A stretch of DNA of 63,852 nucleotides, filler included, from Microthyrium microscopicum (lineage: Eukaryota): the NCBI GenBank assembly GCA_010405405.1. It is 17 parts of 6 records of this genome, joined end to end, with 100 filler letters (N's around TTAATTAATTAA, not from the genome) between each part and the next. Parts side by side here need not be neighbours in the genome. Positions count along the whole stretch, not along the records: positions 44,914 to 55,222 come from MU004238.1; 16 more parts are not named here. The stretch is one strand, 5' to 3'. Below are positions 19,801-62,598 of the stretch, in pieces. How positions within the stretch are numbered: position 1 is the first letter of the stretch; the number at the start of each line of letters is the position of its first letter. Position numbers and translations under genes: made by a program. A model generated the notes under the pieces. The model was given only the letters and a program-made list of their open reading frames with translations. It was not told where the DNA came from and did no database searches.

Positions 19801-21151
19801 CTTAGGCTAACTTTATACTAATTCTATACTAACTTAACGTTTAGTATTAAAAATAAAATAGAAGGTAATATATAGAAATAAGTTAAATTTCTTAGAAATA
19901 TATATACTACTTTAGTACTTTATATAAATTATAAAATATTCTAAATAAAGCTTAAGATATATATCTTTAACTCTATGTAAGAAAGTTTTAATAAAGGTAT
20001 AATTCTTTATATAATTACTAACCTCTTTTATAGGCTTAGTTATATATAATAATCTAGTTTAATACTATTTTAAGATATTAAATAACTAGTCTAATATTTA
20101 CTAAATAAAGCCTACTAGATTAATATTATTATATTAAGTAAATTACTAGTTTAAATTATAATTTAATAATTTTTAAACTTATAGAACTTAGTAAACTCTA
20201 TAGTTTAATCTTAGTACTTAGTAGTAAAAGTACTTTAAGGAGTAGTTTACTTTTAGTAGTTAATAAGTATAATTAGTTAACGTAGATACTTTATTTACTT
20301 AATCTCGTTATAAATTTAAGTATAAACTAACTACTAATCTTATAGTTATTAGTAAGAGTAGTACGCTTAAGAGTAGCTTTAGTACTACTTATCTTATAAA
20401 GAGTAATTCTAATAGTAGATATTATAGTTAAATATTAGTAAAACTCTAATTATTATTAAAGACCTTTAAACTCTTAAACTACTTAATTAGCTTAATAATA
20501 AAATTATTAATAGCTTCCTTACTAAGCTTTACGAAAAGGCTAAGTCTAAACTTACTAAATAGATAAAAATAGTAAAAACCTTAATTAAAGATAATATCTT
20601 ATAATATTATATACTTAATACCTATTAGTTTCTTAAGATATAATAATAAAATAATATTAAAAAGATTACTTACTAAATAAAGCGCTAAAAAATTAGTAAA
20701 AAAAATCTTCTTAGTATTTATAAACTCTTTATTCTAATTTATTAAGATAGTTACTAGACTCTACTAACTATTCTTTCTTAATAATATTAAGTACGTTAGT
20801 ATAATTCCTTATTTACTAGTAAAGAACCTATTCTTACTTTAGCTAAAGAAATACTTTAATATAAGTTAGATAATACTTAAGATAAGAGTAAATAGATATT
20901 TAAGAAAGTAGAGAATAGTTATTAATAAAACTCTTTAGATTATAGTACCTTTATCCTTATAAATACTTAGGCTACTTTCTATACTAATAACTTACCTAAT
21001 ATTCTTCTTAACTAATATAGTAAAGTAATATAATAACTAATTAGTTTAATTATCTTTTATAGTAGCTTAAAAGGTAACTTTAACTTAGAGGCCTAGTATA
21101 ATAGCTTTTATCTAAAAACTCTATAAAATATTTTTAACTATCCTTCTTATA
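16860..21151 (+). pseudogene. Multi-exon gene relic: unknown N-terminal part, E/M/Q-rich helical stretch, poly-Asp/Ser acidic tract, C-terminal Ulp1 domain from 20449 (could be more than one gene)
   Basis: Several GT(A)AGT...CTAAY...AG intron-like blocks. (AAT)n at 19048-19110 reads as a RIPed GAY run (GAT survives at ~36740). Ulp1 motifs start at 20449. Confidence 0.6.
19560..19844 (+). repeat. 11-bp GCTAACCCTAG and 19-bp GCTARTATTTAAACCCTAG minisatellite, probably intronic; other copies at 1715-1990 (-), 37245-37501, 60760-61014
   Basis: Unit number differs among the four copies. The block ends in tactaac...tttag. Confidence 0.85.
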
Positions 21152-36331: not shown

Positions 36332-38802
36332 AAAATATAAATATCTTATATACTAAATCTTTATCTTCTTCTTTTTATATCTACTAATACTTAATCTATA
36401 TTTATAATATTTATTATTATAAGCTTTATAAGTCCTTTATATAAAGCTTACTACTTATACGAAATAATAAAAAAGTAAATAGAAGAGTAAATAGAAGAGC
36501 TAATAAAAGAGTAAATATAGGCTAAACTAAATATACGTCTTAAAGAATTACTTAAATTTCGTAACTCTTTATAATTAATAATCTCGCTAGAGCTAATACT
36601 AGCTAATATAATAGTATAGGATATTAAATTATAGAAAGATTTTAATCCTAATAATATAGACTAGCTATATAACTTTATTTAAACGTTTATAATTCTATAT
36701 ATATATAGTTAATTTTCCTAACGTTTTATAACTAATAACGATAATAATAATAATAATAGTAATAATATTAATAGTAATAATAATAATAGTAATAAAGGTC
36801 TTAGGTACTTAGATACGTTAGATAAGGATAACTTAGACTTAGAAAACAATATAGACTTAGAGAGTTTAAGTTCTAATAAAGATTAGAGTTATAATTCTAA
36901 TAACTAATAGTTATTATAATTTAAGTTAAATTATAGGACAACATCTATACTTTAAATACTAAAGTAAATAGATAGATTTAAATTAAAATTAACGAATTTA
37001 ATATTTAACTTTTTTATTATATTTACTACTAATATAACTCTCTTTTGCTAATACTAACTTATAATAATAAGAATATAATAACTCACTATAGTAATAATTA
37101 TAATTAAGATATAAATAGATTAAGAATATATATAGAAATAATATTAGTATAAGTATAAATAATAATAATATATATAATATTAATAGTATTATTTAATAAA
37201 CTATACTTAAAAAGTTAACTAGACTAAATCTTTAGTACTCTAAACTCTTAGCTAACTCTAGGCTAACTCTAGGCTAATCTTAGGCTAACTCTTTATATAA
37301 GTAGGCTAAGATTTAAACTCTAGGCTAGTATTTAAACTTAGGCTAACCCTAGGCTAATCCTAGGCTAACCCTAAGCTAACTCTATATATAAGTAGACTAA
37401 TATTTAAACCTTAGGCTAATATTTAAACCCTAGGCTAGTATTTAAACTATATATTAATCTAAGCTAACTCTATACTAATCTTATACTAACTTAATATTTA
37501 GTATTAAGAATAGAATAGAAGATAATATATAGAAATAAGTTAAATTTCTTAAAAATATATATANNNNNNNNNNNNNNNNNNNNNNNNNNNNNNNNNNNNN
37601 NNNNNNNNNNNNNNNNNNNNNNNNNNNNNNNNNNNNNNNNNNNNNNNNNNNNNNNNNNNNNNNNNNNNNNNNNNNNNNNNNNNNNNNNNNNNNNNNNNNN
37701 NNNNNNNNNNNNNNNNNNNNNTAGATACTATAGTTAAATATTAGCAAAACTCTAATTACTATTAAAGACCTTTAAACTCTTAAACTGCTTAATTAGCTTA
37801 ATAACGAAATTATTAATAGCTTCCTTACTAAGCTTTATAAAAAAGCTAAGTCTAAACTTGCTAAATAAATAAAAATAGTAAGAACCTTAATTAAAGATAA
37901 TATTCTATAATATTATATACTTAATATCTATTAGTTCTATAAGATATAATAACGAGATAATATTAAAAAGATTACTTATTAAACAAAGTACTAAAAAATT
38001 AGTAGAAAGAATCTTCTTAGCGTTTATAAACTCTTTATTCTAATTTATTAAGATAGTTACTAGACCCTACTAACTATTCTTCTTTAACGACGTTAAGTAC
38101 GTTAGTATGACTCCTTATTTACTAGCAAAGGACCTATTCTTACTTTAGCTAAAGAAATACTTTAATATAAGTTAAATAACGCTTAGGACGAGAGTAAATA
38201 GATATTTAAGAAAGTAGAGAATAGTTATTAATAAAACTCTTTAGATTATAGCGCCTTTACCCTTATAAATACTTAGGCTACCTTCTATACTAATAACCTA
38301 TCTAATATTCTTCCTAACTAATATAGCAAAGTAATATAATAACTAATTAGTTTAATTATCTTTTATAATAGCTTAAAAGGCAACTTTAACTTAGAGGCCT
38401 AGTATAGTAGCTTTTATCTAAAAACTCTATAAAATATTTCTAACTATCTTTCTTATAGAGTATAATATTAGTAGAGAGCTTATCTACTATAGAGGATAGC
38501 CTATTTTCTTCTTAATCTAATATACTCTTCTTATTAATATATATATATTCTTAACTAAAAATTATCTTCTTATTAATAATATAATCTTTTACTATTACTA
38601 GTTCCTATTATTAGTAATATATTTTATTATTATAAATACATTCTATCGTTATAAATATAGCCTCTTATTAAAGATATATTAAAAAGACTAATAGCTATAG
38701 CTTAATCTACTTTAGTAATAATTACTATATATAAGCTAGTATAGGACGAGGAAGTTACTATTAACCCTAGTTTCTTAGTATAGATTAAGAAGAACTAGCT
38801 AG
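36332..38802 (+). mobile_element. Family A fragment (least RIPed Ulp1 copy)
   Basis: Colinear with 18645-21151 and extends beyond it. Confidence 0.88.
37755..38537 (+). pseudogene. Ulp1-like SUMO protease (peptidase C48) catalytic domain relic
   Basis: All in one frame: (W)LN(D)EIIN at 37794; KIGGKNLL..LFIPIHQGS(H)(W)TL with His codon at 38058; YDSL at 38106; QQNSSD(C)(G)AF with Asp at 38244; C-terminal RRLIGSII.CGGLKGNF. This is the His-Asp-Cys order of clan CE. Confidence 0.88.
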
Positions 38803-44913: not shown

Positions 44914-45008
44914 AACCCTAACCCTAACCCTAACCCTAACCCTAACCCTAACCCTAACCCTAACCCTAACCCTAACCCTAACCCTAACCCTAACCCTAAC
45001 CCTAACCC
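44914..45008. repeat. Telomeric (CCCTAA)n tract, ~16 units, at scaffold start (chromosome left end)
   Basis: Perfect repeats, with the C-rich strand 5' at the scaffold end. Confidence 0.97.
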
Positions 45009-45014
45009 CTACAG

Positions 45015-45105
45015 TGGGGCCAGCGCACTCGATGGGAGCCAGCGCACTCGATGGGAGCCAGCGCACTCGATGGGAGCCAGCGCACTCGATGGGAGCCAGC
45101 GCACT
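45015..45105. repeat. Telomere-adjacent 19-bp tandem repeat GATGGGAGCCAGCGCACTC x5
   Basis: Direct reading. Confidence 0.95.
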
Positions 45106-46957
45106 GCGCGCGCCATCAACCACCAACTCCATCACCACTTGCTCCGCTCGCACGCCGCGCAACCAACCACCAACTCCATCACCACTTTTTCATCTGCTTC
45201 TCGCTCGCACGCCGCGCATTACCTCGCTCTACGCCGCCAACTTCAATCTGCTTCCCGCGCACCGCGCATTTCTTCACCTGCTTCCTTCTCCCACCACTTT
45301 TTCTACACGCCGCGCAATACCTCGCTCTATTTTCCGCTTTCCCTTGCCGCGCATCTCAACCTTCGTCGCCGTTTTCTACTCTTGCTTGCATACGCGCATT
45401 TTCCCGCATCACTCCCTGCTTCATCATCATTTTTCGAACTTCGTCGCCGTTTTTCGTGTCTCCTTCTTGGCCGCTTCATCAATCTCTTCTCGCTCGCACA
45501 TTGCGCATTTCCAACGCCATCTCTTGGCTGCTGCTCGCCGCGCATTTCACAACACCACATCCATCGCGGACTCCATTGTGCCAACCTCCAGCCACTCCCC
45601 AAAGCCTACCTTCGTGCCCGCGCCCGCGTTATCCACACCTGCACACCTTTCTCCCGTTCTTTGAACCTCGTCCTTCATGTCCAAATCCCAGCGACCCAAG
45701 CTCGCTATCTCGCCGTCGCAAAAGTCCCGCCTTTACCACACGGCATCATGCCCCCCGCTTCACCAGCAGACTTCCCTATACATACAATGCGCGGTACAAT
45801 GCCTGGCTGACGGACTCACCGGACCTTTCGGACTCTCATACTCCGCCCTCGGCTTCTGAATACATTTGCGCTCTGCTGAATACATTTGCGCTCTGGTCTG
45901 AGCCTGATGTCGCTCGCGCGATGCGCATCAACGATCTGGTGGTGTGCTTGTCGCGAACCCGGCCACGAACTGGGGATACGCTGTTCGCGTATTGCTCATT
46001 CAACATACATGATGCTCCTCCGCTTCAAATCATCGCCACAAGCTGCTTGTGATATGAATGTTTGCGCCGCCGCTTCACGTACGAAGCACACCATGTTGCC
46101 TTTCTCACTGCTACTTCCGGGCCAATTCATGTCAATCCCTTGCTTGGGAGTTATTTGAAGCGCTGCTCCATGCGTAGCTATCACTTTTCTGTCCCTCCTT
46201 GTAGTGGTAGTTTCGTTTCACTCCGCATGGACATGAATGACCGAACGATTTCTCGCTTCTGGTTGGTTTCCCTCGTGATCTCTTCATTTGTGAAATGCAA
46301 TTTGCTCTCCCGATGGGTATAAAATCACATGCCTTTTTCTGGGCTCGCGTCTGTACAGCTGCTCTTGCAACGATCTACGAACGTATGCCAAGTTCTTCGC
46401 CTTAGCATATTGGCACAGCAATGGGCATACTAAGTACTCCTGGTTCCCCGTTCTTGGTTCCCTGCTCTTGGTGTCATGCTCTTCTATGTACCATTTCCTT
46501 GAAGTGCCTATTGCAACGGGCAGGAACACATGCTAGTCTAGTCCGCCCTCGTTCATATCGTAACGGTATGTGAACAAGTGCCGTCCTCGAGCCGGACTTA
46601 CAGTTGGTATGGCCTTCAGCGTGTCTTTCTCCCGGAATGTTCTGTGCTCGGAGTCCGGTCACTCGCGTTGCTTCTGAGTGAAACCATTCTCTCATTCTTT
46701 CTTGATCTCGCTACGTAGCTACGTCCCAGGCCTTCGTTCTGGCAGAACGGGCACGACTGATCACACTGGCCTGCTCGTTCATCCACCCTGAATGGGTTCG
46801 AGCTGCTGATTTCTGCCAATATTTCCGGGTCGGAATCGGCAATGGATTTTGAGCCCCCGTTGTGGCTTGCTGCTCAACAGGTCGAAACGCACACGTAGTC
46901 TCTGCCAATGTCATCCTCCTTTACAGGGCACTGCATCTTTGAGACCTCCTACCACAT

Positions 46958-47715
46958 CGAAAGGCCTTACCTCTCCGACAATCGCAGGCCTTACCTCTCC
47001 GACAGTCGAAAGGCCTTACCTCTCCGACAATCGCAGGCCTTACCTCTCCGGCAATCGCAGGCCTTACCTCTCCGACAATCGCAGGCCTTACCTCTCCGNN
47101 NNNNNNNNNNNNNNNNNNNNNNNNNNNNNNNNNNNNNNNNNNNNNNNNNNNNNNNNNNNNNNNNNNNNNNNNNNNNNNNNNNNNNNNNNNNNNNNNNNNN
47201 NNNNNNNNNNNNNNNNNNNNNNNNNNNNNNNNNNNNNNNNNNNNNNNNNNNNNNNNNNNNNNNNNNNNNNNNNNNNNNNNNNNNNNNNNNNNNNNNNNNN
47301 NNNNNNNNNNNNNNNNNNNNNNNNNNNNNNNNNNNNNNNNNNNNNNNNNNNNNNNNNNNNNNNNNNNNNNNNNNNNNNNNNNNNNNNNNNNNNNNNNNNN
47401 NNNNNNNNNNNNNNNNNNNNNNNNNNNNNNNNNNNNNNNNNNNNNNNNNNNNNNNNNNNNNNACCCTCCCGATAGCGCCTTACCTCTCCGGCAATCGCAG
47501 GCCTTCCCTCTCCTCTCCGGCAATCGCTTGATATGCGCGAAGGTTCGGGAGGACGACCCTCTCCGGCAATCGCTTGATATGCGCGAAGGTTCGGGAGGAC
47601 GACCCTCCCGATAGCGCCTTACCTCTCCGGCAATCGCAGGCCTTGCCTCTCCGACAATCGCTTGCTATGCGCGAAGGCTCGGGAGGACGACCCTCCCGAT
47701 AGCGTCTTACCTCCT
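46958..47715. repeat. 24-25-bp minisatellite AGGCCTTACCTCTCCGRCAATCGC with higher-order variants, spanning an N gap
   Basis: Six units before the gap. After the gap, variants are interleaved with a tatgcgcgaaggYtcgggaggacgaccc block. Confidence 0.92.
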
Positions 47716-47770
47716 CGTTCTTTGCCATCGGCGCAAAGATTCTGGTTGGCTTTACGAACATGAAAAGCTG

Positions 47771-48066
47771 CAACCCTTCGGCCACTACTTCCTACCGATA
47801 GGACCAATTCAATGAATGGAAACACCGACTCGACTACGCCGATGGCTATGACCCACACCAACCCTTCGGCCACTACTTCCCACCGATGGGACCAATTCAA
47901 TGAATGGAAACACCGACTCGCCTACGCCGATGGCTATGACCCACACCAACCCTTCGGCCACTACTTCCCACCGGTGGGACCAATTCAATGAATGGAAACA
48001 CCGACTCGACTACGCCGATGGCTATGAACCACACTCCCCGGAACTGGGATGGCTTGGAAGCAGTCT
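47771..48066. repeat. 88-bp tandem repeat x3
   Basis: caacccttcggccactacttcc occurs at 47771, 47859 and 47947. Confidence 0.95.
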
Positions 48067-48869
48067 TTGGTGAGTCACCTTGGCTATCCGTACCTTGTCT
48101 CATTGTGGTGACGCCCAAGTTTTTGAATGTTCCAGCGGTACATCATTGAAGTTTCGTCGGGTCGCGTCGCGGGCTATAAGGAGGAACATAAGTCGGCTAG
48201 ATTTTCAAGTATTTGGTCTTCACATGAATCTGTGTCAACAACACGCCAGATGCAGTTCTCACGTCGACGTATAGCAGTCAGATAATGACACGCGTGAAAA
48301 GTCGCGAGGCTGGGCAATCGGCACGGTGCACTGTGGCTGCCACCAGCCATCGCCAGTATCCACCAAGTTTTTCGGCTTTGTGGCCACCTCCCTTGTGGCG
48401 CGTATCAAGCGAATGATTTCAATTGGAAGATCACATGGTCTTCCCGGCACATGCTCCCCAGAACGGCCCCCTCACTATGAAATTGATTCTGTCTCATATT
48501 TTCGCAGTCTATCGTAGTAGGAAGTTAAGTTTTACTGGTTCATGTCGTCTGTATGAACTTCTGGACGGAAAAGATGACCTGTTGTGCTTGACTTTTATTC
48601 CGGTAATTGGATGTAAGTTACTTTTTTGCAAACTTAGACTTGAGAGCTTCGAGAATCAGATGCAGGCAGTTCCCCTTCGTACTCTTTCAAATGCGACCAA
48701 TCTTACAAAGTTGTGATATGTCCCGCATGTGGGGAATCTTGGTTGCTATCAACGGATCAGCCACCGGTACATAAAAGTAACAGCGCCCTTGCAACAAGTA
48801 ACGCGGCTGCTATCTACCTATAACCAGACAAATATCCAGTAACTTGTCTCCTTTAGAACTCGCCCAACA

Positions 48870-51800
48870 TTCTGCGTGAAACCATTTATCATTGCGCAGG
48901 CCGAATCATCTTTGCGCAGCAGTTGTGCCCTCAACCTGTTTAACCTCGAATACCACGAAACTATCACGAAATCAAGACTGCGCTAGAGAAATCAACTCCG
49001 CGCAATATGTTCATTGAACAGAATATAGTATTTTGCGCAAGGTAAAAAGAATCTGCGCACTTGGGGGCGGGCTGGCGCAGTGATGTTTCCCATAGGTACG
49101 AAGTATCTTTTGACCTGTAAGAACATAACAACAAGACTGCGCTAGAGACATCAATTCCGCGCATTCTGCTCCTGAAATAGGATAGAGCATCTTGCGTAAA
49201 GTAAAAAGAATCCGCGCACCTGGGGGATGGCCAGCGCAGTGATGTGTATCTTTTGACCCATAAGAACATAACAACAATAGTGCGCTAGAGAAATTCATTT
49301 CACGCATTCTGTTTACTGAATACGATAGAATACCTTGCGTAAAGTAGAAGTAATCCGCGCACCTGGGGGCGGGCCAGCGCAGTGATGTGTTCCATAAGTA
49401 GTAAATATATTTCGACCTCCAAGAACATGAAAACAACAGTGCGCTAGAAACATTCATTCCGCGCATTCTGTTCATTAAATAGGATAGAATACCTTGCATA
49501 AAGTAAAAGGAATCTGCGCACCTAGGGGCGGGCCAGCGTAGCAATGTCTTCCATGAGTACTATATCTTTCGACCCCAAGAACATGACAACAAAAGTGCGC
49601 CAGAGAAATTCATTCCGCGCATTCTACTATATAACTAAGATACAACATTTTGCGCAAAGTGAAAAGAAACCGCGCACCTGGGGCCAGGCCAGCGCAGTGA
49701 TGCTTTGCAAACCTAGGTAGCTACTAAGTTCAACCTCATCTAGCTTCAAAGTTGGCAATGATCTCGGTCGCTTGAACCTGCCCAGAGCAGATGAACACCA
49801 GTGCACCATCATCTTCAATCTTCTTCAAGTTCTTGAGATGACGACGAATACAAGGCTCCAGAAATCTAGCATCGACCTCGCCGCCCTCACCTTCTCTGAG
49901 CGGCATCTCGATCTCTCCCTGCGCCTGCCGCCGTCCTCGCCTCGCTCTCCAAGCGTGGTGTCAACGGTCGGCACGGCCACAGACCAGATCCCAAAAAGCC
50001 GAATGGGGCGCTCGCAGACGAGTCACGCCTGCGCAGATGAATAGCTCGGCCCCTGAGGGCGATGCTAAAACAGCTACACATCAATGCCAGTAGCCAGGAC
50101 CACATTGATCGCCCGCGTAGCCAGAGCGTAACCAAATCCTTCCAGCCAGGCCAAATTCCCGGGACATTCCTGGTTCCCAATGGCGCGCAATCCGAGCAGG
50201 CTTGTTCATAAGCATGGGCATGTCAGCGGTTTTTCGAGCATGAACTTGATAGACACATCTCATTGAAATGGCTGCTGCTCGAAGGAGTGGCGTATATATG
50301 TATGCTGGTCGTACTACAGAAGAATATTGGCCTCAAAGGAAGGAAAACCTTATGTGGACACACTCTCCATGGCGGAGTCGACCATACAAAACTCCAAAAA
50401 CTATCTTCAGGGGGTCTCGGACATCATCTCATCGCTGTTAGATGGTTTTTCGGTTGGAACAGTCCTGTGCTGTGTTGCTATGGTGCAGTCAGGCGGCCAG
50501 TTCCACCCACACACAGCTACACTGTACTTTCCATCAGTCGCACATTACTTGGATCTATCTCGAGCTTTACAACGGGTTTCCTTTTGCCGCACAACATGGT
50601 GGTTTCGGTATCTTTTGACCCTTAAGAACATGACAACAAGACTGAGCTAGAGAAATTAACTCCGCGCATCTTGCTCTTTTGATATGATAGAGTATTCCGC
50701 GCGAAATAGAAACTATCCGCGCGCCAGCAGTTAGGTCAGCGCAGCGTTGCTTTCTCTGTCGTACACTGAGATACAGCCATCAAGGCCGCGCTATACAATA
50801 CAAATCCGCGCATTATGTAGTTCATGCAAAACGCAAGCTCCTACATAAAATGAAAACAATCCGCGCGCAAGCAAGCATGACAGCGTAGTAATGGTGTCTC
50901 CATCTAACACGAAGACCAAGTCGAAATTTGATCATGAAGCCACCAAGACTGCGCTACAGAAAAGAAATCCGCGCCTTCTTGTATATCAGCATATTATAAC
51001 CATTTGCGCGAAACTAAAATACATTGCGTAGAAAGTGGCGAGCCAGCGCAGTGATGGCTTCAAGATGAGCTACATTTCACAACAAGGCAAAGCCACCAAG
51101 ACTACGCTGTAGATAACAAATCCGCGCATTCTTTTCTGCAAGTACAGTGTAGCGTTTTGCGTGAGACCAAAAGAACTTGCGTAGAAAGTGGCGAGCCAGC
51201 GCAGTGATGGCTTCAATATGAGCTACATCTCACAACAAGATGAAACCACCAAGACTGCGCTACAGATAATAAATCCGCGCATTCTTTTCTCCAAGCATAG
51301 TATAACCTTTTGCGTGAGACCAAAAGAACTTGCGCACAAAGTGGCGAGCCAGCGCAGTGATGGCTTCAATACTACTAGCTACAAGATGAAGCCACCAAGA
51401 CTGCGCTGCAGATAACAAATCCGCGCATTCTTTTCCGCAAGCACAGTTTAGCCTTTTGCGTGAGACCAAAAGAACTTGCGCACAAAGTGGTAGTGATGGC
51501 TTCAATACATTTCACAACAAGGTGAAGCCACTAAGACTGCGCTGCAGATAACAAATCCGCGCATTGCTGCTCTCTGAGCAAATTATCACTATTTGCGTGA
51601 AACAAAATGAACGTGCGAGTAAAGGGCGACATAGCGCAGTGATATGTTCAATTGTAGCTACATCTCACACCAAGATCAAGTCAAAATGCTGCACAACCAC
51701 CAAGACTACGCTACGCAAAACAAACCCGCGCGTTCTAGTCTCTCGGCGCATTGAAACACTAAGCGCGAAATGAAAACAACTTGCGCGGAAGTAGAGGACC

Positions 51801-54210
51801 TGGCGATGTGATGGTTTCGACAGCTACACCTTAAATCAAGGTCAAGAAGAGTTTACGAACCCGCCGCACTATGCTACAATCCGAATGAAATGAGGTGAGC
51901 CAGTACAATGAAGCATTCTGTAGGTGCACCTTACAGTAAGATCAACCTGAGATATCATGCAGCCATCAAGAATGCGCTACAGAAAATGAATCCGCGCATT
52001 CTATTCCCAAGACTTTCTTCAACATCCCGCGCGGAATCTTTGACTTCTACGCACATTCAAACAAATGTGCACCGCAATAATGTGATTGGAATATTAGCAA
52101 CATAACCAAATCTGTCAAGACTGCCTTGAAGAAAATGAATCTGCACATGTTCTACTCGAAAGATTGTTCAAGCTTTATCCGTAAGCTCGTATAGGGGTAT
52201 TCGCAGCGCATAAGCCTGGCGATGGTACCATCAATACCTTTGTTTACCAACGTTATATCAGGACACTAAGACTGCGCATTACATACTCAGTGCCTCAGTT
52301 ATCCGCTTCGAAATGAATAAGAATCCTTTTCTGTTCATACAATCCAGTTGCTCGCACGATATAGCCTACAACAAATACGACCAGTCTCCTGGCTTATGCG
52401 TATACTCGCAATGATGAACATCGAGCATGAGGAAGCCCCCTTCTCGCACAATATCGCCTACAACAGAGACGCTAGAGTATGCCTACTCTGGAAATGTCTA
52501 CCAACATTTTTCAACAATATGAACAGCGAGCATGTGGAAGCTCTCATGGAACCTACGCCCCTTCTCTGGCCCTACGCTCCATTTGCTCGCACGATATAGC
52601 CTCCAATAGAGAAGACCAGTCTCCAGACCTATGCCTACTCTGGAAATGTCTACCAACATTTTTCAACAATATGAACAGAGACCATATGGAACCTCTCATG
52701 GAACCTACGCCCCTTCTCTGGCCCTACGCTCCATTTGCTCGCACGATATAGCCTCCAATAGAGAAGACCAGTCTCCAGACCTATGCCTACTCTGGAAATG
52801 TCTACCAACATTTTCAACAATATAACCGGTGAGCATGTGGAAGCTCTCACGGAATCTGCGCCCCTTCTCTGGCCCTACGCTCCATTTGCTCGCACGATAT
52901 AGCCTCCAATAGAGACGACCAGTCTCCGGACCTATGCCTACTCTGGAAATATCTACCAAAATTTTCAACAACATGAACGGCGAGATGAAGGAGCATTTGG
53001 AAGCTCTGGTAGCGTGCGATGCTTTTCAAGTCAAGAAGCTGCCGATGTAGCTACAGCCTACATCAAATACGACCAGGCTCTACGCCTATGCCTAGGCTCG
53101 AAATGCTTACCAATCTCTTCAACGACATGAACAGCGAGATGAGGAAGCTCTGGTAGCGTGCGATGCTTTTCAAGCTGCCGATGTAGCTATAGCCTACTAC
53201 ATCCAATACGACCAGTCTCTACGCCTATGCCTAAGATGAAAGAGCATGTGGAAGCTCTGGTAGCGTGCGATGCTTTTCAAGCCAAGAAGCTGCCGATGTA
53301 GCTACATCGTAGCGTGCAATGCTTTTCAGGCCAAGTACATCAGCAAAGACGTTGAAGATGCGGTATCTGGGAGATTGTATGGTCTGAACGCGTGGCCGTA
53401 GCGATTCTATCCATTTCTACGCTTCGCCTAGCACCACATCACTGTTTCAAGTCAAAGACTGCGCTGGGAAAATAGAGGCCGCGCATCCTGGTCTTGGAAC
53501 TGCTCTCAACACCTTGCGTAAAGGCAGATAGGCTTTCCACACTTGGGTCAGCATAACGACCACCCGCAAGGCACTTTGAATACCGCATTTGGTTTCAACG
53601 TCAACAATCTGACAACAGCCCCATTGAAGAAAATCATTACCAAGATCTTGTAAATACCGCCTTGCTTATGAGTTTGCGTGGAGGTGTTTATTACCGCGCA
53701 GCTCGTAGCTGGTTTCCGTAACGTTTTCTCCGCCTGACAAGTAACGTAGTAACGAGGTCATCACATCAGCCTCTCAAGCTGCGCAAGTGGAGTCCAACCC
53801 GCGCATTCTGTTCCCTGATCTTCGTTTGTAAATTTGCGCGGAAACTTTCCCTATAGCGCAACTTGGGGCAAGTATGCGCAGAGTTTGCTCGACCCAGGCG
53901 ATTTACAATGTTACCCGAAACGGAACACCACCAGCCAACTTAAGCTGCGCTGACATGAACAATCCTGCGCGTTCGGATTTTATGAATAAACTTCAGATTT
54001 TGCGCGAATTCTCATTGAAATGCGCATTCCGGGGCGATCCAGCGTAGCGACCAACCGATTGATGTGCTGTAAATCGGCCTCAAGCTGCAACGATAGAGGA
54101 ATTTGACTGCGCACGGGAATCAAATCCTACGCATCTTATTCTCTGGGTCCTATTCCACTGTGGTAGCCGAGTTTGCCACCATCTCCGCCTCTGGGGTGAC
54201 TTTGCGCAGC
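48870..54210. repeat. Array of ~22 diverged ~135-170-bp units with five GCGC boxes at 20/35/20/20-bp spacing (blocks 48870-49705, 50600-52290, 53455-54210)
   Basis: Box starts counted by hand, e.g. 48980/49000/49035/49055/49075, 50951/50971/51006/51026/51046, 53781/53801/53836/53856/53876 and 53947/53967/54002/54022/54042. Confidence 0.92.
52345..53340. repeat. 152-bp tandem repeat (near-identical copies) decaying into shorter variants
   Basis: ttgctcgcacgatatagcct occurs at 52348, 52583, 52735 and 52886. Confidence 0.93.
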
Positions 54211-54669
54211 GGTTACTTGCTTGACAATTTACTTCCTTCTCCTGGCATTTCGTCCAGATGGACCAATGTCACGTTCGATTTGTCTTTCTTTGTTATTTTG
54301 TAATACTTTACTTGTTTTTCCTGGCCAAATGTTTCCTGGCACGTTCAATAAGTTGCAGTCACTTCTCCTCGTCTTCATCTCAAAGATAGATAATCCGTCC
54401 ACTCAGCATTGCCTTTTCGTGAATATTGCAAGTTCTGCGACGACAACACGCATCGAGTAATGCGCTTCGTCAGTTCGACAAGAGCTATCCTCAGAGAAAT
54501 ATGTCAGGCACCCCGTTGGTAAGCCTGCAGGTACAAGCCTGTGAAGCTGTACAAACGGAATATGGCGAACTCCATGTCGACAACAACCTGTAAGCCATGA
54601 AGATGAATTGTTGCAGAGCAACGCGCGCGTGTCTTCAGACAGAAAACACAGTTGCGACTGTACCTGTAG

Positions 54670-55222
54670 GAAAAAGGCGAACTACTTCCTGCCAGTGGGA
54701 CCTGGAAACACCGACTCGACTAAGCGAAAGGCGAGAGCTACGATCCTCGAACATTCTCAGCAGTCAAGAACTGGAATGGCTTGGAAGCAGTCTTATCAAT
54801 CAGTTCTTCGACTAAGCCGATGGCTATGATCCTCAAACATTCTACTAGCTTGGAAGCAATCTCATCAAGCAGTTCTTCGACTCAAGCCGGTGGGACCAGT
54901 GGAAACACCAACTCGACCACGCCGATGGCTATGATCCTCGAACATTCCCAGGAGCTGGGATGGCTTGGAAGCAGTCTTATCAATCAGTTCTTCGACTAAG
55001 CGGATGACTAGGTATGATCCACAAACATTCCACTAGCTTGGAAGCAGTCTTATCAATCAGTTCTTCGACTCAAGCCGGTGGAAACACCAACTCGACTACG
55101 CCGATGGCTATGATCCTCGAACATTCCCAGGAGTCAGGAGCTGGGATGGCTTGGAAGCAGTCAGTTCTCAGAACTGACACCGGTGGGACCAGTTCAATGA
55201 GCGGAAACACCGACTCGACTAC
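54670..55222. repeat. Mosaic repeat related to the 88-bp family
   Basis: Shares ggaaacacc(g/a)actcgactacgccgatggctatga and ctgggatggcttggaagcagtct with 47771-48066. Confidence 0.88.
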
Positions 55223-55464
55223 NNNNNNNNNNNNNNNNNNNNNNNNNNNNNNNNNNNNNNNNNNNNTTAATTAATTAANNNNNNNNNNNNNNNNNNNNNN
55301 NNNNNNNNNNNNNNNNNNNNNNAATTATATAACTTATATTAATTTTTAAGTAATAGTTTATTAGCTTTAAGTCGTAGCTATTAATATATTTTCTTCTTAC
55401 TAAAAACTATTTTACTTACTTACCTAATAGTTATTACTAGCTCTTTATAATCCTTATATTATAA

Positions 55465-56200
55465 TAGCTTATAGCTAATAATATATCTTCTATTTAGTAA
55501 ACTAGACATTATTTATTAGTCTAGTAGCTATTACTATTTTTTATTATACTCTATTATTAGTATATACTATAACTAACGTCCCTCTTTATTATATTAGCTC
55601 TTAAAATTTTCTATAACTTTACTATAATTATTAATTTACTAGAAGTCTAGTTCTTATAAATTTTATAGCTAATAACTAGCTTTAGTATTTTAGCTAGTAG
55701 CTTTTCTTATAATCTAATAATTATTACTAGCTTACTATATATCTTAGTACTAGCAAATTTTATAGCTAATAAGCTTTTTTATTATACTAGCTAGCTACTT
55801 TTACTATAACCTATTAATTATTATTAATTTACTTAATATATAATAATAACTAAAGTTATAGTTAATAAGCCTTTTTATTATACTAGCTAGCTACTTTTAC
55901 TATAACCTATTAATTATTATTAATTTACTTAATATATAGTAATAGCTAAAGTTATAGCTAATAAGCCTTTTTATTATACTAGCTAGTAACTTTTATTATA
56001 ATCTAATAGTTTTTACTAACTTAATTAGTATATAGTATTAATATAAGTTATAGCTAATAAACCTTTTTACTCTACTAGAATATAGCTTTCTTAATAACCT
56101 ATTAGTTTTTACTAACCTAATTAGTATATAGTATTAATATAAATTATAGCTAATAAATATCTTTATTATAGTAGTAAGTAAGTTCTTTATATTCTAGTAT
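55465..56200. repeat. RIPed 96-97-bp tandem repeat, ~8 units
   Basis: A tatagctaat-like motif occurs at 55470, 55567, 55664, 55761, 55857, 55953, 56049 and 56145. Confidence 0.85.
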
Positions 56201-56792
56201 AAATTTACTACTTACTTATATACTAGTCTTAACGCCCTTACTAATAATAAAATTTAGTTTAATACTAGCCTATAGCTAATACTCTTATATAATTTTTTTT
56301 AAGTTAGTAGTAAATTTTTAATTTTCTTAAAAAGAGTATATTATTAGAGATACTTTCTCTTCTATATAGTTAAGTTAGAGAGAACTTATAAAGCTAAGTA
56401 GAGTACTTATATTATTAGTATATTAGATTTATTTTTATTTTCTTTCTATATTATAAATACTATTATTTAATATTTATTATATTATAAATATAACTAAACC
56501 TCTACTAAATAAAATATTCTATAAGTTTCCTAACGTTTAACTCTAATTATTTAAGTAAGAAATAAAATATAATTATTATTAGAATAATATTATTTACTTA
56601 GTAGACTTACACTACTATAATAATACTTTTAAGTAAATACTTTTATAGATATTATTATAGTATCTACTACTTTATTTCTAGCTTATAGCCTANNNNNNNN
56701 NNNNNNNNNNNNNNNNNNNNNNNNNNNNNNNNNNNNTTAATTAATTAANNNNNNNNNNNNNNNNNNNNNNNNNNNNNNNNNNNNNNNNNNNN

Positions 56793-57957
56793 TACCTTTA
56801 CCTATTCTAGAATTAATACTCTATTAAAAAATATAAATTTTAAGCTACTTATATTTTTATAGTTATATCTTCTTTAGAGATAATTAAAATTATTATTACT
56901 AGTAGTATCTAATAAAGACTTATTCTTATAATCTATAGGATATTAATAATTATCTTTATTATTAAGGATATTTAGTTTTTACTATTTACTTTACTATATA
57001 GTTAACTTACTATTCTTATCTCTAGATAAGCTAAATATAATATCTTCTTTATAGGCTTTGCTATACTTTATAGTACTAGTATTTTTATTACCTATAGCTA
57101 ATAGCTTTAGCTAGCCTATATATATATCTTTCTAAAGATACTTTAGATTATCCTTTATATACTTAGTATTAATAAATTAGATATTCTTTCTAGCTATTAA
57201 AGCTCTCTATATAGTAAGTACGCTATTTTATAATATATTCTTAGCTTATTAGGTTAGATTAGGGATACTAGATTATTAAGTACTAATAGGCGCTACTAAG
57301 TATAATAGTAAAGTCTTTTATTACTCTTATAGAGATAATATTATCTTACGAATCTTTACTAAGCTAAATATTTAAGTCGTTATAGCTAATATATTATTCT
57401 ATAATACTACTACCTTTTTCTTAAGCAATTTAGTAATTAGCTTAAAACTATCTACTTTATTAGACTTAGGCTTAGTTATAGCTAATAAGTTACTTAAACT
57501 TAAAATAGCGTCTTAATAAATTAATTTTTTAGTATTAAGACTATAAATAAAGTAATATTAAGCTAAGGTAATAGATTCCTTATTATTATTAAGTAGAATA
57601 ATATTAGCTAGTAACAACTTAGGCCTAAATTTTTTAGTCTTAGATATAGTATCTCTAGTTAATTAGGTATTTATCTTAGGCTAAGACGATACTAATAAGT
57701 ATATAATTATTAAATATTAGCTAAAAGACTTATTATCTAGCTCTATTAAATAGCTATCTAGGATTATAGAAGTATAGCTAGTTAAATCTAGAGCTACTAA
57801 CTTCTTACGCCCTTTAGTTAAGGCTAGAGTTAAGTAATAATTATTATTATTATTACTTATACTTAGGACGAAGAGATTAGCCTAATAAGACTTTTTTAGA
57901 GAAGAAGTAATAAAATTATTATTACTATTAGTATTTTTATAACTTAGATAACGTCAT
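56793..57957 (-). pseudogene. RIPed ORF relic, unknown product
   Basis: Surviving ATG (cat at 57955-57957) and a protein-like de-RIP reading. No motif. Confidence 0.3.
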
Positions 57958-58762
57958 TTTAAATTATATATTAGATTAGGAGTTACCTTAGCTTTAGTAC
58001 CTCCTTTACCTTATTTACTATAACTAGGAGCTATAATACTATTAACTATATAAATAATTAATAATTATTCTTATTTAATAGGTTATAAAAAGTAATATAC
58101 CTTTAGGTTACTATAAAAGAGTATAATATTAAAAATACTATAAATTATAGTAGTAATAACTTAATTTATTAAAACCTAGAATAAGAAATAAACTTAAAGC
58201 AAAAATAGATAAGAGACTAAAAATTATAGAAAATAAATAAAAGAGTAAAGTTAATAAAAGATTAGAATAAGAAAAGATAAAAGATTAAGGTAATAAAGGA
58301 GACGTCTAATAAATAAGGTTCTTTCTAAACTAATATATAGGTACCTTCTAGACTAAGATTACTCCTACTATTTTTACCTTAGCTATATATCTTAATAGAT
58401 ACTTATATATTAATACTAAGGCTATTATAACCTTTCTCTAATTCCCTATAATCTCTTTTATAACTTTATCCTTATTATAAACTATACCTCTTTTATATTA
58501 ACCTATTATTTCTAGGTATAATAATCTATTTAGACGTACTTATTTAAGTCTAGACTATAAAAAGTAATAATTTATTATTCTCTAGAATAATCTATATCTA
58601 TTATTTCTTCTATTCTATTTATATATACTTAGCTAGTAACTAACTATATCTAAATTAAATTANNNNNNNNNNNNNNNNNNNNNNNNNNNNNNNNNNNNNN
58701 NNNNNNTTAATTAATTAANNNNNNNNNNNNNNNNNNNNNNNNNNNNNNNNNNNNNNNNNNNN

Positions 58763-60215: not shown

Positions 60216-62598
60216 ATATAGTTAACCTTCTTAACGTTTTATAACTAATAATAATAATAATAATAATAATAATAGTAATAATATTAATAGTAATAATAAT
60301 AATAGTAATAAAGGTCTTAGGTACTTAGATATATTAGATAAGAATAACTTAGACTTAGAGGATAATATAAACTTAGAGAGTTTAAGTTTTAATAAAGATT
60401 AGAGTTATAACTCTAATAACTAATAGTTATTATAATTTAAGTTAAATTATAGGATAATATCTATACTTTAAATACTAAAGTAAATAGATAGATTTAAATT
60501 AAGATTAATAAATTTAATATTTAACTTCTTTATTATATTTACTACTAATATAAATCTCTTTTACTAATACTAACTTATAATAATAAGAATATAATAATTT
60601 ACTATAGTAATAATTATAATTAAGATATAAATAGATTAAGAATATATATAGAAATAATACTAATATAAGTATAAATAATAATAATATATATAATATTAAT
60701 AGTATTATTTAATAAACTATACTTAAAAAGTTAACTAGACTAAATTTCTAGTACTTTAAACCCTTAGCTAACCCTAGACTAACTTTATATATAAGTAGGC
60801 TAATATTTAAACCCTAAGCTAGTATTTAAACTTAAGCTAACCTTAGGCTAACCCTAGGCTAACCCTAAGCTAACTCTATATATAAGTAGGCTAATATTTA
60901 AACTTTAGGATAATGTTTAAATCCTAGGATAATATTTAAACCCTAGGCTAGTATTTAAACTATATACTAATCTAGGCTAACCTTATACTAACTCTATATT
61001 AACTTAATATTTAGTATTAAGAATAGAATAGAGGGTAATATATAGAAATAAGTTAAATTTCTTAGAAATATATATACTACTCTAGTAGTTTATATAAATT
61101 ATAAAATATTCTAGATAAAGCTTAAAATATATATCTTTAACTCTATATAAAAAAGTTTTAATAAAGATATAATTCTTTATATAATTACTAACCTCTTTTA
61201 TAAGCCTAGTTATAAGTAGTAATCTAGTTTAATATTATTTTAAGGTATTAAATAACTAGTTTAATATTTACTAGATAGAGCTTACTAGATTAACGTTATT
61301 ATACTAGGTAAATTACTAGTCTAAACTATAATTTAATAATTTTTAAAATTATAAAACTTAGTAAACTCTATAGTTTAATATTAGCGCTTAATAGTAAAAG
61401 TACTTTAATAAATAGTTTACTTTTAGTAGTTAATAAGTATAACTAGTTAATATAAATACTTTATTTACTTAATTTAGTTATAAATTTAAGTATAAACTAA
61501 CTACTAATCTTATAGTTATTAGTAGAAGTAGCGCGCTTAGAAGTAGCTTTAGTACTACTTACTTTATAAAAAGTAGTTCTTATAGTAGATACTATAGTTA
61601 AATATTAGTAAAACTCTAACTATTATTAAAGACCTTTAAACTCTTAAACTACTTAATTAGCTTAATAATAAAATTATTAATAGCTTCCTTACTAAGCTTT
61701 ATAAAAAGGCTAAGTCTAAACTTACTAAATAGATAAAAATAATAAAAACCTTAATTAAAGATAATATCTTATAATATTATATACTTAATACTTATTAGTT
61801 TTCTAAGATATAATAACGAAATAGTATTAAAAAGATTACTTACTAGATAAAGTACTAAAAAATTAATAAAAAGAATCTTCTTAGCGTTTATAAACTTTTT
61901 ATTTTAATTTATTAAGGTAGTTACTAGACTCTACTAACTATCCTTTCTTAATAATATTAAGTACATTAATATAACTTCTTATTTACTAGTAAAGGATTTA
62001 TTTTTACTTTAGCTAAAGAAATACTTTAATATAAGTTAAGTAACGCTTAGGATAAGAGTAAATAAATATTTAAGAGAGTAAAAAGTAGTTATTAATAAAA
62101 CTCTTTAGATTATAGCGCCTTTACCTTTATAAATACTTAAGCTACTTTCTATACTAATAACCTACCTAATATTCTTCTTAACTAATATAGTAAAGTAATA
62201 TAATAACTAATTAGTTTAATTATTTTTTATAGTAGCTTAAAAGATAACTTTAACTTAGAGGCTTAGTATAGTAGCTTTTATCTAAAAACTTTATAAAATA
62301 TTTCTAATTATCTTTCTTATAAAGTATAATATTAGTAAAGAGCTTATTTACTATAGAGGATAGTCTATTCTCTTCTTAACTTAATATACTCTTCTTATTA
62401 ATATATATATATTCCTAACTAAAAATTATCTTCTTATTAATAATATAATTTCTTACTATTACTAGTTTCTATTATTAGTAATATATCCTATTATTATAAA
62501 TATATTTTATTATTATAAATATAGCCTCTTATTAAAAATATATTAAAAAGACTAATAGCTATAGCTTAATCTACTTTAGTAGTAATTACTATATATAA
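60216..62598 (+). mobile_element. Family A fragment with Ulp1 domain relic at 61619-62401
   Basis: Colinear with 19015-21151 and 36700-38730. Confidence 0.9.

Follow-up and report, generated by a model that had tools for sequence, protein, structure and literature searches.

A subtelomeric tandem array of Microthyrium microscopicum carries a repeated set of five GCGC words, and selection acts on the letters of these boxes and on their spacing, not on the letters of the spacers between them. The array is probably a non-coding, double-stranded, multi-site docking platform for a putative DNA-binding factor, tandemly amplified within a compound subtelomeric domain.

Organization of the Array

The array lies on a 10.3-kb contig from MU004238.1, within the 63,852-nucleotide stretch (filler included) that was analysed as a whole and is referred to here as the window. 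It is comprised of 20 full-length units of ~155 bp in three blocks (Table 1), with unit periods of 136-169 bp and linkers of 37-70 bp. An initial annotation had described about 22 units with an invariant five-box core. The pattern at fixed offsets is real, but only 14 of the 20 full-length units hold all five boxes at offsets 0/20/55/75/95 with at least 16 of the 20 box letters, three of them perfectly, and six are decayed or contain core indels. GCGC-type boxes occur at these offsets from the first-box positions then listed, except that the cores of units 51403, 53461, and 54109 are not kept: the first lacks box 5 owing to a 10-bp deletion, the second retains boxes 1-3, and the third boxes 1, 2, and 5. 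Units 52123 and 53621 are largely decayed, and in unit 51539 compensating +1 and -1 core indels leave boxes 1 and 5 still 95 bp apart.

Neighbouring units share homologous linkers, as in tandem duplication. Among eight reliably alignable neighbour pairs, seven of ten indels fall in linkers and three in cores, a majority rather than the near totality first ascribed to linkers of ~40-70 bp. Distal and proximal spacers share an identity of 0.20-0.53 (inner-spacer columns), and their description as barely alignable is a fair one. The proposed five-box spaced pattern, allowing up to two mismatches, matched the whole window 12 times (11 on the plus strand and one on the minus strand) and 100 dinucleotide shuffles not at all; since the window is mostly AT-rich, the tree simulations described below are the stronger null. 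Neither the unit profile nor a RIP-tolerant purine/pyrimidine profile found further unit copies within the window.

The invariant core of each box is GCGC, and the boxes are in mixed orientation over 99 bp. Of the ten box pairs, the best two inverted pairs are 1/5 and 2/3, with 89 and 83 of 224 flank cells complementary, respectively, in agreement with the initial reading of the first pair as inverted and the second as complementary. Boxes 1-4 form a dyad-symmetric 20/35/20 set, to which box 5 adds one further 20-bp step. The ends of the ~115-bp module form a 13-bp imperfect inverted repeat (offsets -8 to +4 against 94 to 106), in which 83% of cells are paired. An ancient internal duplication of 20 or 55 bp seemed likely by eye and was rejected, with direct flank identity between boxes being merely 0.18-0.32.

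Table 1. Positions of the array, its inserts, and the surrounding repeats in the window
Feature	Position	Strand	Remarks
Telomere tract (CCCTAA)n	44914-45008	+	Period 6, 15.8 copies, 100% matches; scaffold spacer precedes; chromosome end to the left
Telomere-junction 19-bp repeat	45015-45105	+	4.8 copies, one GCGC word per copy
24/46-bp repeats	46956-47661	+	Family D12; flank a 364-N gap on either side
88-bp repeat block, left flank	47771-48067	+	One family with 54681-55222
Remnant unit	48874-48917	+	Boxes 3-5 at exact 20/20 spacing; profile frame 48819; diverged copy elsewhere reaches up to 48916
Block 1	48972-49703	+	Five intact units; box 1 at 48980, 49139, 49282, 49441, 49597
Insert in linker	49710-50600	-	Diverged copies elsewhere in the genome (paralogous contigs)
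Block 2	50636-52290	+	Intact units at 50644, 50788, 50951, 51104, 51257, 51708, 51974
Block 2, damaged units	51403, 51539, 52123	+	
Block 2, remnants	52274; possibly 51808	+	52274, box 1 only; 51808 by eye, profile score -40
Unrelated ~152-bp repeat family	52325-53311	+	Interrupts array; almost GCGC-free
Block 3	53453-54215	+	Most diverged; intact units 53781, 53947; decayed 53461, 53621, 54109
Right-flank repeat block	54681-55222	+	Kin of 47771-48067; contig end falls inside block

Chromosome-end Setting

The contig opens with (CCCTAA)n, and the array units sit 4-9 kb inward; counted across the one 364-N gap, the array (48874-54215) falls inside the range of about 6-13 kb from a telomere that is typical of repeats associated with telomere-linked helicases. 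The presence of the same 24/46-bp repeats on both sides of this gap supports a true join between the telomere-proximal part and the array part. Tandem repeats with periods of 19, 24, 46, 88, ~155, 152, and 188 bp make the contig a compound subtelomeric domain. The 19-bp junction repeat was considered as a copy of box 5, but its local alignment score (32) was not significant against 200 shuffles (mean 26, maximum 35). Similarly, an apparent GCGC excess in 45009-45560 (17 against 11.9±3.0) was matched by 18 of 300 shuffles, with no GCGC word in 45110-45560.

The host fungus is RIP-active. The array is not a RIP-degraded repeat, as TpA/ApT is not high (0.73-0.84 in the array blocks, 1.63-1.65 in AT-rich contigs) and CpA+TpG is not depleted relative to those contigs, with (CA+TG)/(AC+GT) at 1.29-1.42 and 0.02-0.09, respectively. 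The interspersed-homology pairing of RIP has an 11-12-bp period, which does not fit the 20/35 spacing. Reading the contig in six read-through frames gave a single sub-threshold Pfam match, outside the array, and no encoded candidate binder. The predicted protein at 45942-46901 (minus strand) had no homologues, and a bacterial promoter and terminator scan, not meaningful for a fungus, remained at shuffle level.

Selection on the Boxes and Their Spacing

In 16 gapless cores, 283 of 320 box letters are kept. The initial annotation had suggested comparing per-column conservation with a neutral model; a GTR+G model fitted on the 91 non-box columns yields 157±17 box letters (maximum 213), and none of 5000 simulations reached the observed value. 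Placing all sites in the slowest class raised the expectation to 192±17 (maximum 245), again with none of 5000 reaching 283. As a control for post hoc column choice, the best five 4-mers anywhere in the simulated alignments were taken, and these kept at most 279 letters (0 of 2000 reached 283). Transversions number 2 of 280 in boxes and 191 of 1274 elsewhere, and parsimony steps per column average 1.75 in boxes compared with 3.96 outside (non-box G/C columns 4.41, A/T columns 3.74).

A cross-check between proximal and distal units gave the same picture. The columns in which 11 or more of 12 proximal units agree are matched at only 13 of 25 positions in each of the distal units 53781 and 53947, whereas their box letters are kept at 20/20 and 19/20 (p = 6e-7); with the decayed units 53621 and 54109 included, 63 of 80 box letters match compared with 49 of 100 at the other conserved columns (p = 5e-5). 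Within block 1 alone, 4 of 20 box columns are variable against 39 of 79 outside (p = 0.02). The box/spacer contrast is not significant in the youngest trio of units (p = 0.26), and because of this and of the six damaged units among 20 (two of which, 51403 and 51539, are recent duplicates), selection may be relaxing.

These results bear on whether the array is a neutral minisatellite, in which each GCGC word is a mutational cold spot or is regenerated by conversion. Chromosome ends of fungi commonly carry compound tandem repeats, as described in the available text of PMC1635262, several units are decaying, and the box changes are nearly all transitions, mainly at outer box positions. Neutrality is nevertheless rejected in all three sets of simulations, the spacing is kept as well as the letters, and the non-box G/C columns change faster, not slower, than A/T columns. 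Moreover, we know of no sequence context that cuts transversions about twenty-fold at one 4-mer. A neutral origin is thus very improbable.

Tests for a Protein or RNA Product

Stop codons interrupt all six frames, as first noted, with 8-35 per frame across the 16 cores. A decayed repeat protein gene of ~51-53 residues per unit on the minus strand would draw on the best minus frame, in which the 16 cores contain 8 stops (column shuffles, 27±11; 5th percentile, 11) and a 177-aa ORF spans 49011-49544. However, this frame is the best of six, and 7 of the 16 cores still contain a stop in it. The ratio pN/pS is near 1 (0.82 in this frame and 0.77-0.98 overall), box identity is the same at all three codon positions (0.79-0.81), non-box columns lack codon periodicity (0.49-0.52), and most unit periods are not multiples of three. 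The ORF itself has no homologues of 97-310 aa, no Pfam match in its frame, and only noise-level Atlas matches (0.83). An intact ORF with dN/dS far below 1, which the initial annotation had set against its own reading, was therefore not found; the repeat-protein reading is largely refuted and scarcely credible. The claim of a constraint at the nucleic-acid level, on box sequence and on spacing, is supported by the step counts, the proximal-distal cross-check, and the simulations (0 of 5000).

It is also very unlikely that the units act as a structured RNA, or as folded single-stranded DNA, through mutual pairing of box 1 with 5 and 2 with 3. This two-helix model does pair 83.6% of cells (shuffles, 81.0; 6 of 500), pairing between boxes 1 and 5 exceeds a probability of 0.5 in 6-8 of 14 units, and 4 of 13 single-unit folds have z <= -2.6. 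Individual units, however, fold differently, boxes 2-4 have no partner in more than 5 of 14 units, and RNAalifold chooses partners that differ between the two strands, its covariation terms being +0.1 and -0.2. Pairs in which both sides change are about as frequent as in shuffles (4 against 3.6; cells 7 against 5.0) in a comparison of only 14 related sequences with low power. RNA loops usually need no fixed length, whereas those implied here are invariant. No Rfam match was obtained at E values up to 1, and no tRNA. The covariation that a structured-RNA repeat would predict was thus not recovered, and that option of the initial annotation is unsupported.

A Candidate Multi-site Docking Array

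Of the three options originally offered (protein binding, recombination, or structured RNA), multi-site protein binding fits best. Each ~115-bp module would present five GCGC-core sites at fixed distances, which a sequence-specific factor may read cooperatively from one face of the DNA. The modules would be redundant, and the array could help to organise or maintain the chromosome end as a chromatin boundary, tether, or recombination platform. Its present form reflects tandem amplification of modules, length changes mostly in linkers, and loss of boxes in six of 20 units. Against a docking array stand this damage, the interruption by two inserts, and the failure of the Pfam reading in six frames to yield a candidate binder in the contig; the evidence comes from a single known locus. 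Fungal chromosome-end repeats are usually treated as fast-changing filler, whereas here five words and their distances are strongly selected, and the module (as wild type, box mutants, and spacing mutants) offers a ready probe for pulling down a putative subtelomere-binding factor.

The constraint could instead come from a recombinase, and be partly historical, if the module marked where a mobile or telomere-maintenance element ends or recombines, being either MITE-like or a multi-site substrate of a transposase or telomere-linked helicase (TLH). The 13-bp terminal inverted repeat with internal sites resembles a MITE or DNA transposon end, direct copies of one repeat family flank the array (47771-48067 and 54681-55222), at a diverged locus elsewhere homologues of 48604-48916 and 53080-53176 are joined, 48916 to 53080, and C2H2 fingers occur in TLH proteins according to the available text of 10.1101/2024.02.27.582403. 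Nevertheless, no relic of a transposase, recombinase, or helicase is found in the contig or the next two scaffold contigs, the homologous neighbouring linkers indicate tandem duplication rather than independent insertion, and the two inserts split the array at different points, within a linker in one case and just after box 1 in the other. This explanation appears unlikely.

A more specific form of the docking array, judged rather improbable, would make each unit a one-nucleosome sequence code, in which a dedicated factor, possibly a zinc-finger TLH, reads the five sites on positioned nucleosomes; the array would then be a platform for chromosome-end maintenance or recombination and represent an undescribed class of fungal cis-element. 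The period of 136-169 bp is nucleosome-sized, as first stated, in length alone. Relative to the axis that separates boxes 2 and 3, the centres of the five boxes are at -37.5, -17.5, +17.5, +37.5, and +57.5 bp, equal to ±1.75, ±3.75, and 5.75 turns if 10.0 bp make one turn, a value for wrapped DNA, with drift at 10.5. The distance of 75 bp between boxes 1 and 4, and likewise between boxes 2 and 5, is close to one superhelical turn. If the factor were a TLH, or if nucleosomal reading occurred in the predicted phase, the role of such helicases and repeats would become directly testable.

Relationship to Known Systems

Loci with the spaced pattern in metagenomes (6), viral contigs (75 and at least 118, with short flanks at 38 loci of the second scan), and prokaryote genomes (5) include no relative. 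On the unit profile, none of the 204 loci listed reaches 0 (the best scores -3.5), compared with 10.8-140.6 for the array's own intact units when left out, and those inspected are simple repeats or 18-bp coding repeats. The absence of relatives is weak evidence, as fungal assemblies are scarce in these collections, which can be searched only by exact match. No published description of the element was found in the main texts of the literature searched. SBF/MBF binds CGCG sites and AbaA binds CATTCY; these factors and E2F were not adopted as binders, since the invariant core is GCGC rather than CGCG, and otherwise the resemblance is confined to individual boxes.

By analogy, and within the available text of the papers cited, the best functional model is provided by the SPE2 arrays of Plasmodium falciparum, in which two 6-bp repeats 4 bp apart, at ~777 sites on all chromosomes, are bound by the ApiAP2 protein PfSIP2 (PMC2829057). 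The two share a subtelomeric position and a tandem arrangement of short half-sites whose sequence and spacing both matter. The present array differs in that its five GCGC-core sites span 99 bp and are of mixed orientation, with a single known locus and only a putative binder, and its boxes, 20 or 35 bp apart, do not form the bipartite SPE2 motif (6 bp, 4-bp spacer, 6 bp). Meloidogyne satellites, which form centromeric arrays with one or two CENP-B box-like motifs of 17-19 bp (PMC3694981; PMC8097292), likewise keep short motifs within monomers of just 32-64% identity, unlike the five 4-6-bp boxes at fixed mutual distances in this small subtelomeric array. On the best reading, the array may work in the manner of SPE2 arrays or box-bearing satellites yet belongs to neither kind.

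Among fungal repeats, comparison was made with the helicase-associated repeats (HARs) and TLH-containing regions of Magnaporthe oryzae and Fusarium oxysporum. HARs lie beside a TLH gene, are near-identical between ends, and often carry telomere motifs, and HAR-D likewise has a conserved palindromic core (PMC1635262; 10.1101/2024.02.27.582403). Such regions also place several different tandem-repeat blocks within ~10 kb of a telomere, but units of the present array have diverged deeply from one another. No RecQ-type TLH gene is found in 45009-55222 or in 55323-58662 (two of the five contigs to the right); a repeat closes the contig, and the scaffold order is untrustworthy. A multi-box fixed geometry is not described for HARs in the available text, and "gcgc" occurs at a word start 0 times in that of PMC1635262. 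The Candida albicans major repeat sequence, interstitial on seven chromosomes with one 29-bp common sequence, COM29 (PMC6896093), is similarly a nested repeat with 80-170-bp subunits sharing a conserved palindromic word; it is not telomere-adjacent and has no apparent sequence likeness to the array. In FoTeR, the repeats add up to 0.4-1.4 kb and precede a reverse-transcriptase gene (PMC12857005). The VNTR-rich 5' regions of MoTeR/FoTeR elements also adjoin telomeres with many short tandem repeats, whereas the 10.3-kb contig has no reverse-transcriptase Pfam match in six read-through frames up to 55222. Baculovirus hr palindromes (bound by IE1) and the EBV family of repeats (bound by EBNA1) use spaced palindromic sites as enhancer, origin, or tether. 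These are viral, with a single repeated site per unit, unlike the five-box array, and no viral relative was found among the loci listed.

Inserts in the Array

The ~152-bp repeat insert contains few GCGC words (one in 52310-53440, compared with 5.5 in shuffles). In run X3, array-identical contigs had depths of 502-789 and diverged paralogues of 1043-1225, contig depth not being equal to copy number; runs X6 and X7 contained identical low-depth pieces with no independent variation, and the uneven cover in run X5, perhaps an RNA run, was set aside because its contig depths do not allow parts to be ranked. The proteins predicted from the linker insert at 49700-50271 and 49739-49960 (both minus strand) had no homologues. 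Of its listed differences, 11 of 18 are synonymous in one minus frame and three of four in another, and the insert is probably a decayed protein-coding fragment.

Organization of the Array

A profile scan and alignment revealed three blocks that together hold 20 full-length units, besides two or three remnants, with a period of 136–169 bp between adjacent full units (named here by the position of box 1). The five boxes, GCGC words of the unit core, had been described as keeping exact offsets in about 22 units. This holds for 14 of the 20 full units, in which all five are found at 0/20/55/75/95 with 16–20 of 20 letters kept in each unit; box 5 is missing from 51403, 51539 carries +1 and -1 indels that leave 95 bp between boxes 1 and 5, and 52123, 53461, 53621, and 54109 are decayed. 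Almost all indels had likewise been assigned to the linkers between cores, where a majority was indeed found in the eight reliably aligning neighbor pairs (7/10), with the other three in cores. All 13 neighbor pairs gave 30 linker and 22 core indels, the many compensating gaps in the five divergent pairs being regarded as alignment noise.

Changes tolerated in the boxes are mostly GCGC to GCGT or ACGC and, therefore, the core is RCGY with GCGC strongly preferred. Boxes 1–4 are dyad-symmetric (20/35/20), which explains the single minus-strand match of the five-box pattern. Among box pairs, 1/5 and 2/3 show the strongest inverted symmetry, in agreement with their reported inverted and complementary relationships, and that of boxes 1/5 reaches 13 bp with a two-base mismatch. 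A/T tracts concentrate at offsets 11, 53, and 66–67. Where the second insert ends, immediately before unit 53461, there is a 10-base inverted copy of the right arm of block-1 units, which may be there by chance.

Selection on the Boxes

Selection was assessed in 16 cores without gaps, namely those of the 14 intact units and of 53621 and 54109; units 51403, 51539, 52123, and 53461, which have core indels, were left out, as were the remnants. Parsimony gave 1.75 steps per box column, whereas the 91 columns outside the boxes needed 3.96 and the G/C columns among them 4.41. Box letters were kept at 283 of 320 positions, where 157 ± 17 are expected under a GTR+G model fitted to the non-box columns, with mutation treated as context-independent (0/5000 simulations); placing all sites in the slowest class also gave 0/5000. 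As a control for post-hoc column choice, the best five 4-mers anywhere in every simulated alignment were scored, with a maximum of 279 (283 reached in 0/2000). The boxes are far more conserved than their flanks; the opposite outcome had been named in the initial annotation as one that would refute its reading.

Of the 25 columns that are as well conserved as boxes in the 12 proximal units, 53781 and 53947, both distal, each match just 13, whereas the boxes match at 20/20 and 19/20, respectively. Between offsets -6 and 104 of the 14 intact units, transversions occur at 2/280 box positions versus 191/1274 outside, and transitions at 19/280 versus 202/1274. The box/non-box contrast reaches p = 0.02 in block 1 and p = 9e-5 in block 2, and is not significant among the youngest units, three in number (p = 0.26). 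The pattern is real and selected: five short words, and the distances between them, are under selection in a double-stranded geometry; beside these contrasts, a neutral satellite with protected words is improbable.

Nature of the Constraint

A constraint at the nucleic acid level, as proposed, was upheld by pN/pS values of 0.77–0.98 across six frames, with no dN/dS<<1, and by box conservation that is equal at all codon positions. A dead repeat protein is thus very improbable; one minus frame with few stops (8 versus 27 ± 11 expected) gives a mild hint that the repeat once coded for protein, but the 177-aa ORF it holds gains no support from homologues, families, or Atlas. Pairing boxes 1:5 plus 2:3, as in a folded RNA or single-stranded DNA, accounts for 83.6% of cells, a value reached in 6/500 shuffles. 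However, two-sided changes are not in excess under this model (a low-power test on 14 related sequences), box 2–4 partners vary from unit to unit, and there was no Rfam or tRNA match, so that the structured RNA once suggested is quite unlikely.

Multi-site binding is the preferred option; a much less likely one is that the units are acted on by a recombinase or transposase, with a constraint that may in part be historical. Units were multiplied in tandem and some were lost; a sequence-specific protein would occupy all five sites of a unit in a cooperative manner, and the array would serve its chromosome end, a reading to which we give somewhat better than even chances. All five boxes share a rotational phase about an axis at offset 39 at 10.0 bp/turn, because box steps are 20 bp, and drift at 10.5; this arithmetic is a lead, not a test. 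For other factors, periodic and two-gyre nucleosome binding with ∼80 bp between contacts is documented (10.1101/240598), the corresponding distance here being 75 bp.

Comparison with Known Systems

The array would work like Plasmodium SPE2 subtelomeric binding-site arrays (PMC2829057) and satellites with conserved boxes (PMC3694981), and sits where telomere-linked helicase (TLH)-associated repeats occur (PMC1635262; 10.1101/2024.02.27.582403). Its boxes do not fit the SPE2 motif, and it is therefore not filed under SPE2 arrays. No TLH gene was seen in 45009–55222 or 55323–58662, on a scaffold whose order is unreliable, and the array is not filed under TLH-associated repeats either. Metagenome, viral, and prokaryote collections, in which fungal assemblies are few, were scanned with the spaced pattern; at least 204 loci matched, all of those listed scoring below 0 on the unit profile, and no relative emerged among them. 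Metagenome locus L005:2138-2400, a 20-bp tandem repeat with TGCGCA, was rejected as a simple-repeat match unrelated to the unit. The element is apparently undescribed; searches of open-access literature turned up no account of it, and supplements or subscription papers may hold one.

Genomic Setting

The window strings together small contigs, with 44 N, a 12-base linker, and 44 N between each and the next; most of the contigs have a GC content of 13–27%. AT-rich contigs bear the dinucleotide signature of RIP, a repeat-mutating process (TA/AT 1.63–1.65), which points to a filamentous ascomycete. The array contig has normal GC and no RIP mutation in the array, which lies ∼4–9 kb from the telomere. 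The telomere tract at its start sits mid-scaffold, and contig order in the window is therefore artificial. Unrelated 19-, 24-, 46-, 88-, 152-, and 188-bp repeats surround the array, one family on both flanks, and two inserts interrupt it.

Coordinates of the array and surrounding features
Feature	Position	Strand	Description
Array contig	44914–55222		15.8 telomere repeats at start; one 364-N gap, same 24-bp repeat at either edge
Telomere-adjoining tract	45009–45560	+	GCGCA 14 versus TGCGC 2, in short degenerate repeats
Telomere-junction repeat	45015–45105		19 bp, CCAGC-N6-GATGG + 3 bases
Protein-like stretch	45942–46901	-	320 codons, scattered stops between
Array	48874–54215		∼155-bp units
Block 1	48972–49703
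First insert	49710–50600	-	Probable decayed gene; TATA-like word near 50290
Block 2	50636–52290
Second insert	52325–53311		Unrelated repeat, period 151–154 bp, nearly that of flanking units
Inverted arm copy	53435–53444
Block 3	53453–54215
RIP-mutated element, four copies	1715–1985, 19571–19835, 37241–37447, 60799–61006		In AT-rich contigs, with 11- and 19-bp telomere-like repeats

The total GCGC count of the telomere-adjoining tract is not clearly above shuffles. The protein-like stretch, so judged by eye, gave no Pfam match and no homologue among proteins of 176–560 aa.

The first insert is probably a decayed gene. Other parts of the genome hold diverged paralogues of it, including one on a contig of 11.5 kb; Pfam and protein homologue searches gave no name or homologue. 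Differences from paralogous contigs are synonymous at 11/18 listed sites in one frame and 3/4 in another (values for the best of six frames, from 40 listed out of 45 differences to a pool of several paralogues).

Contigs assembled from sequencing run X3 equal the window without differences at 48816–49960, 50270–51053, 51860–52507, and 53253–54700, the last two also matched by run X5 from a different study. This argues only moderately against an assembly artifact, since X3 may be the source sample. X3 array contigs have depths of 502–789, with no variants among those listed, whereas diverged copies of stretches outside the array reach 1043–1225, and one X3 contig joins diverged homologues of 48604–48916 and 53080–53176. 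Depth contrast and joining contig are a hint that the array is low in copy number and that a related locus exists besides it, although the depth of a contig is not a copy number. Of the remnant unit, the second-locus copy of 48604–48916 covers boxes 3–4 and the first part of box 5.
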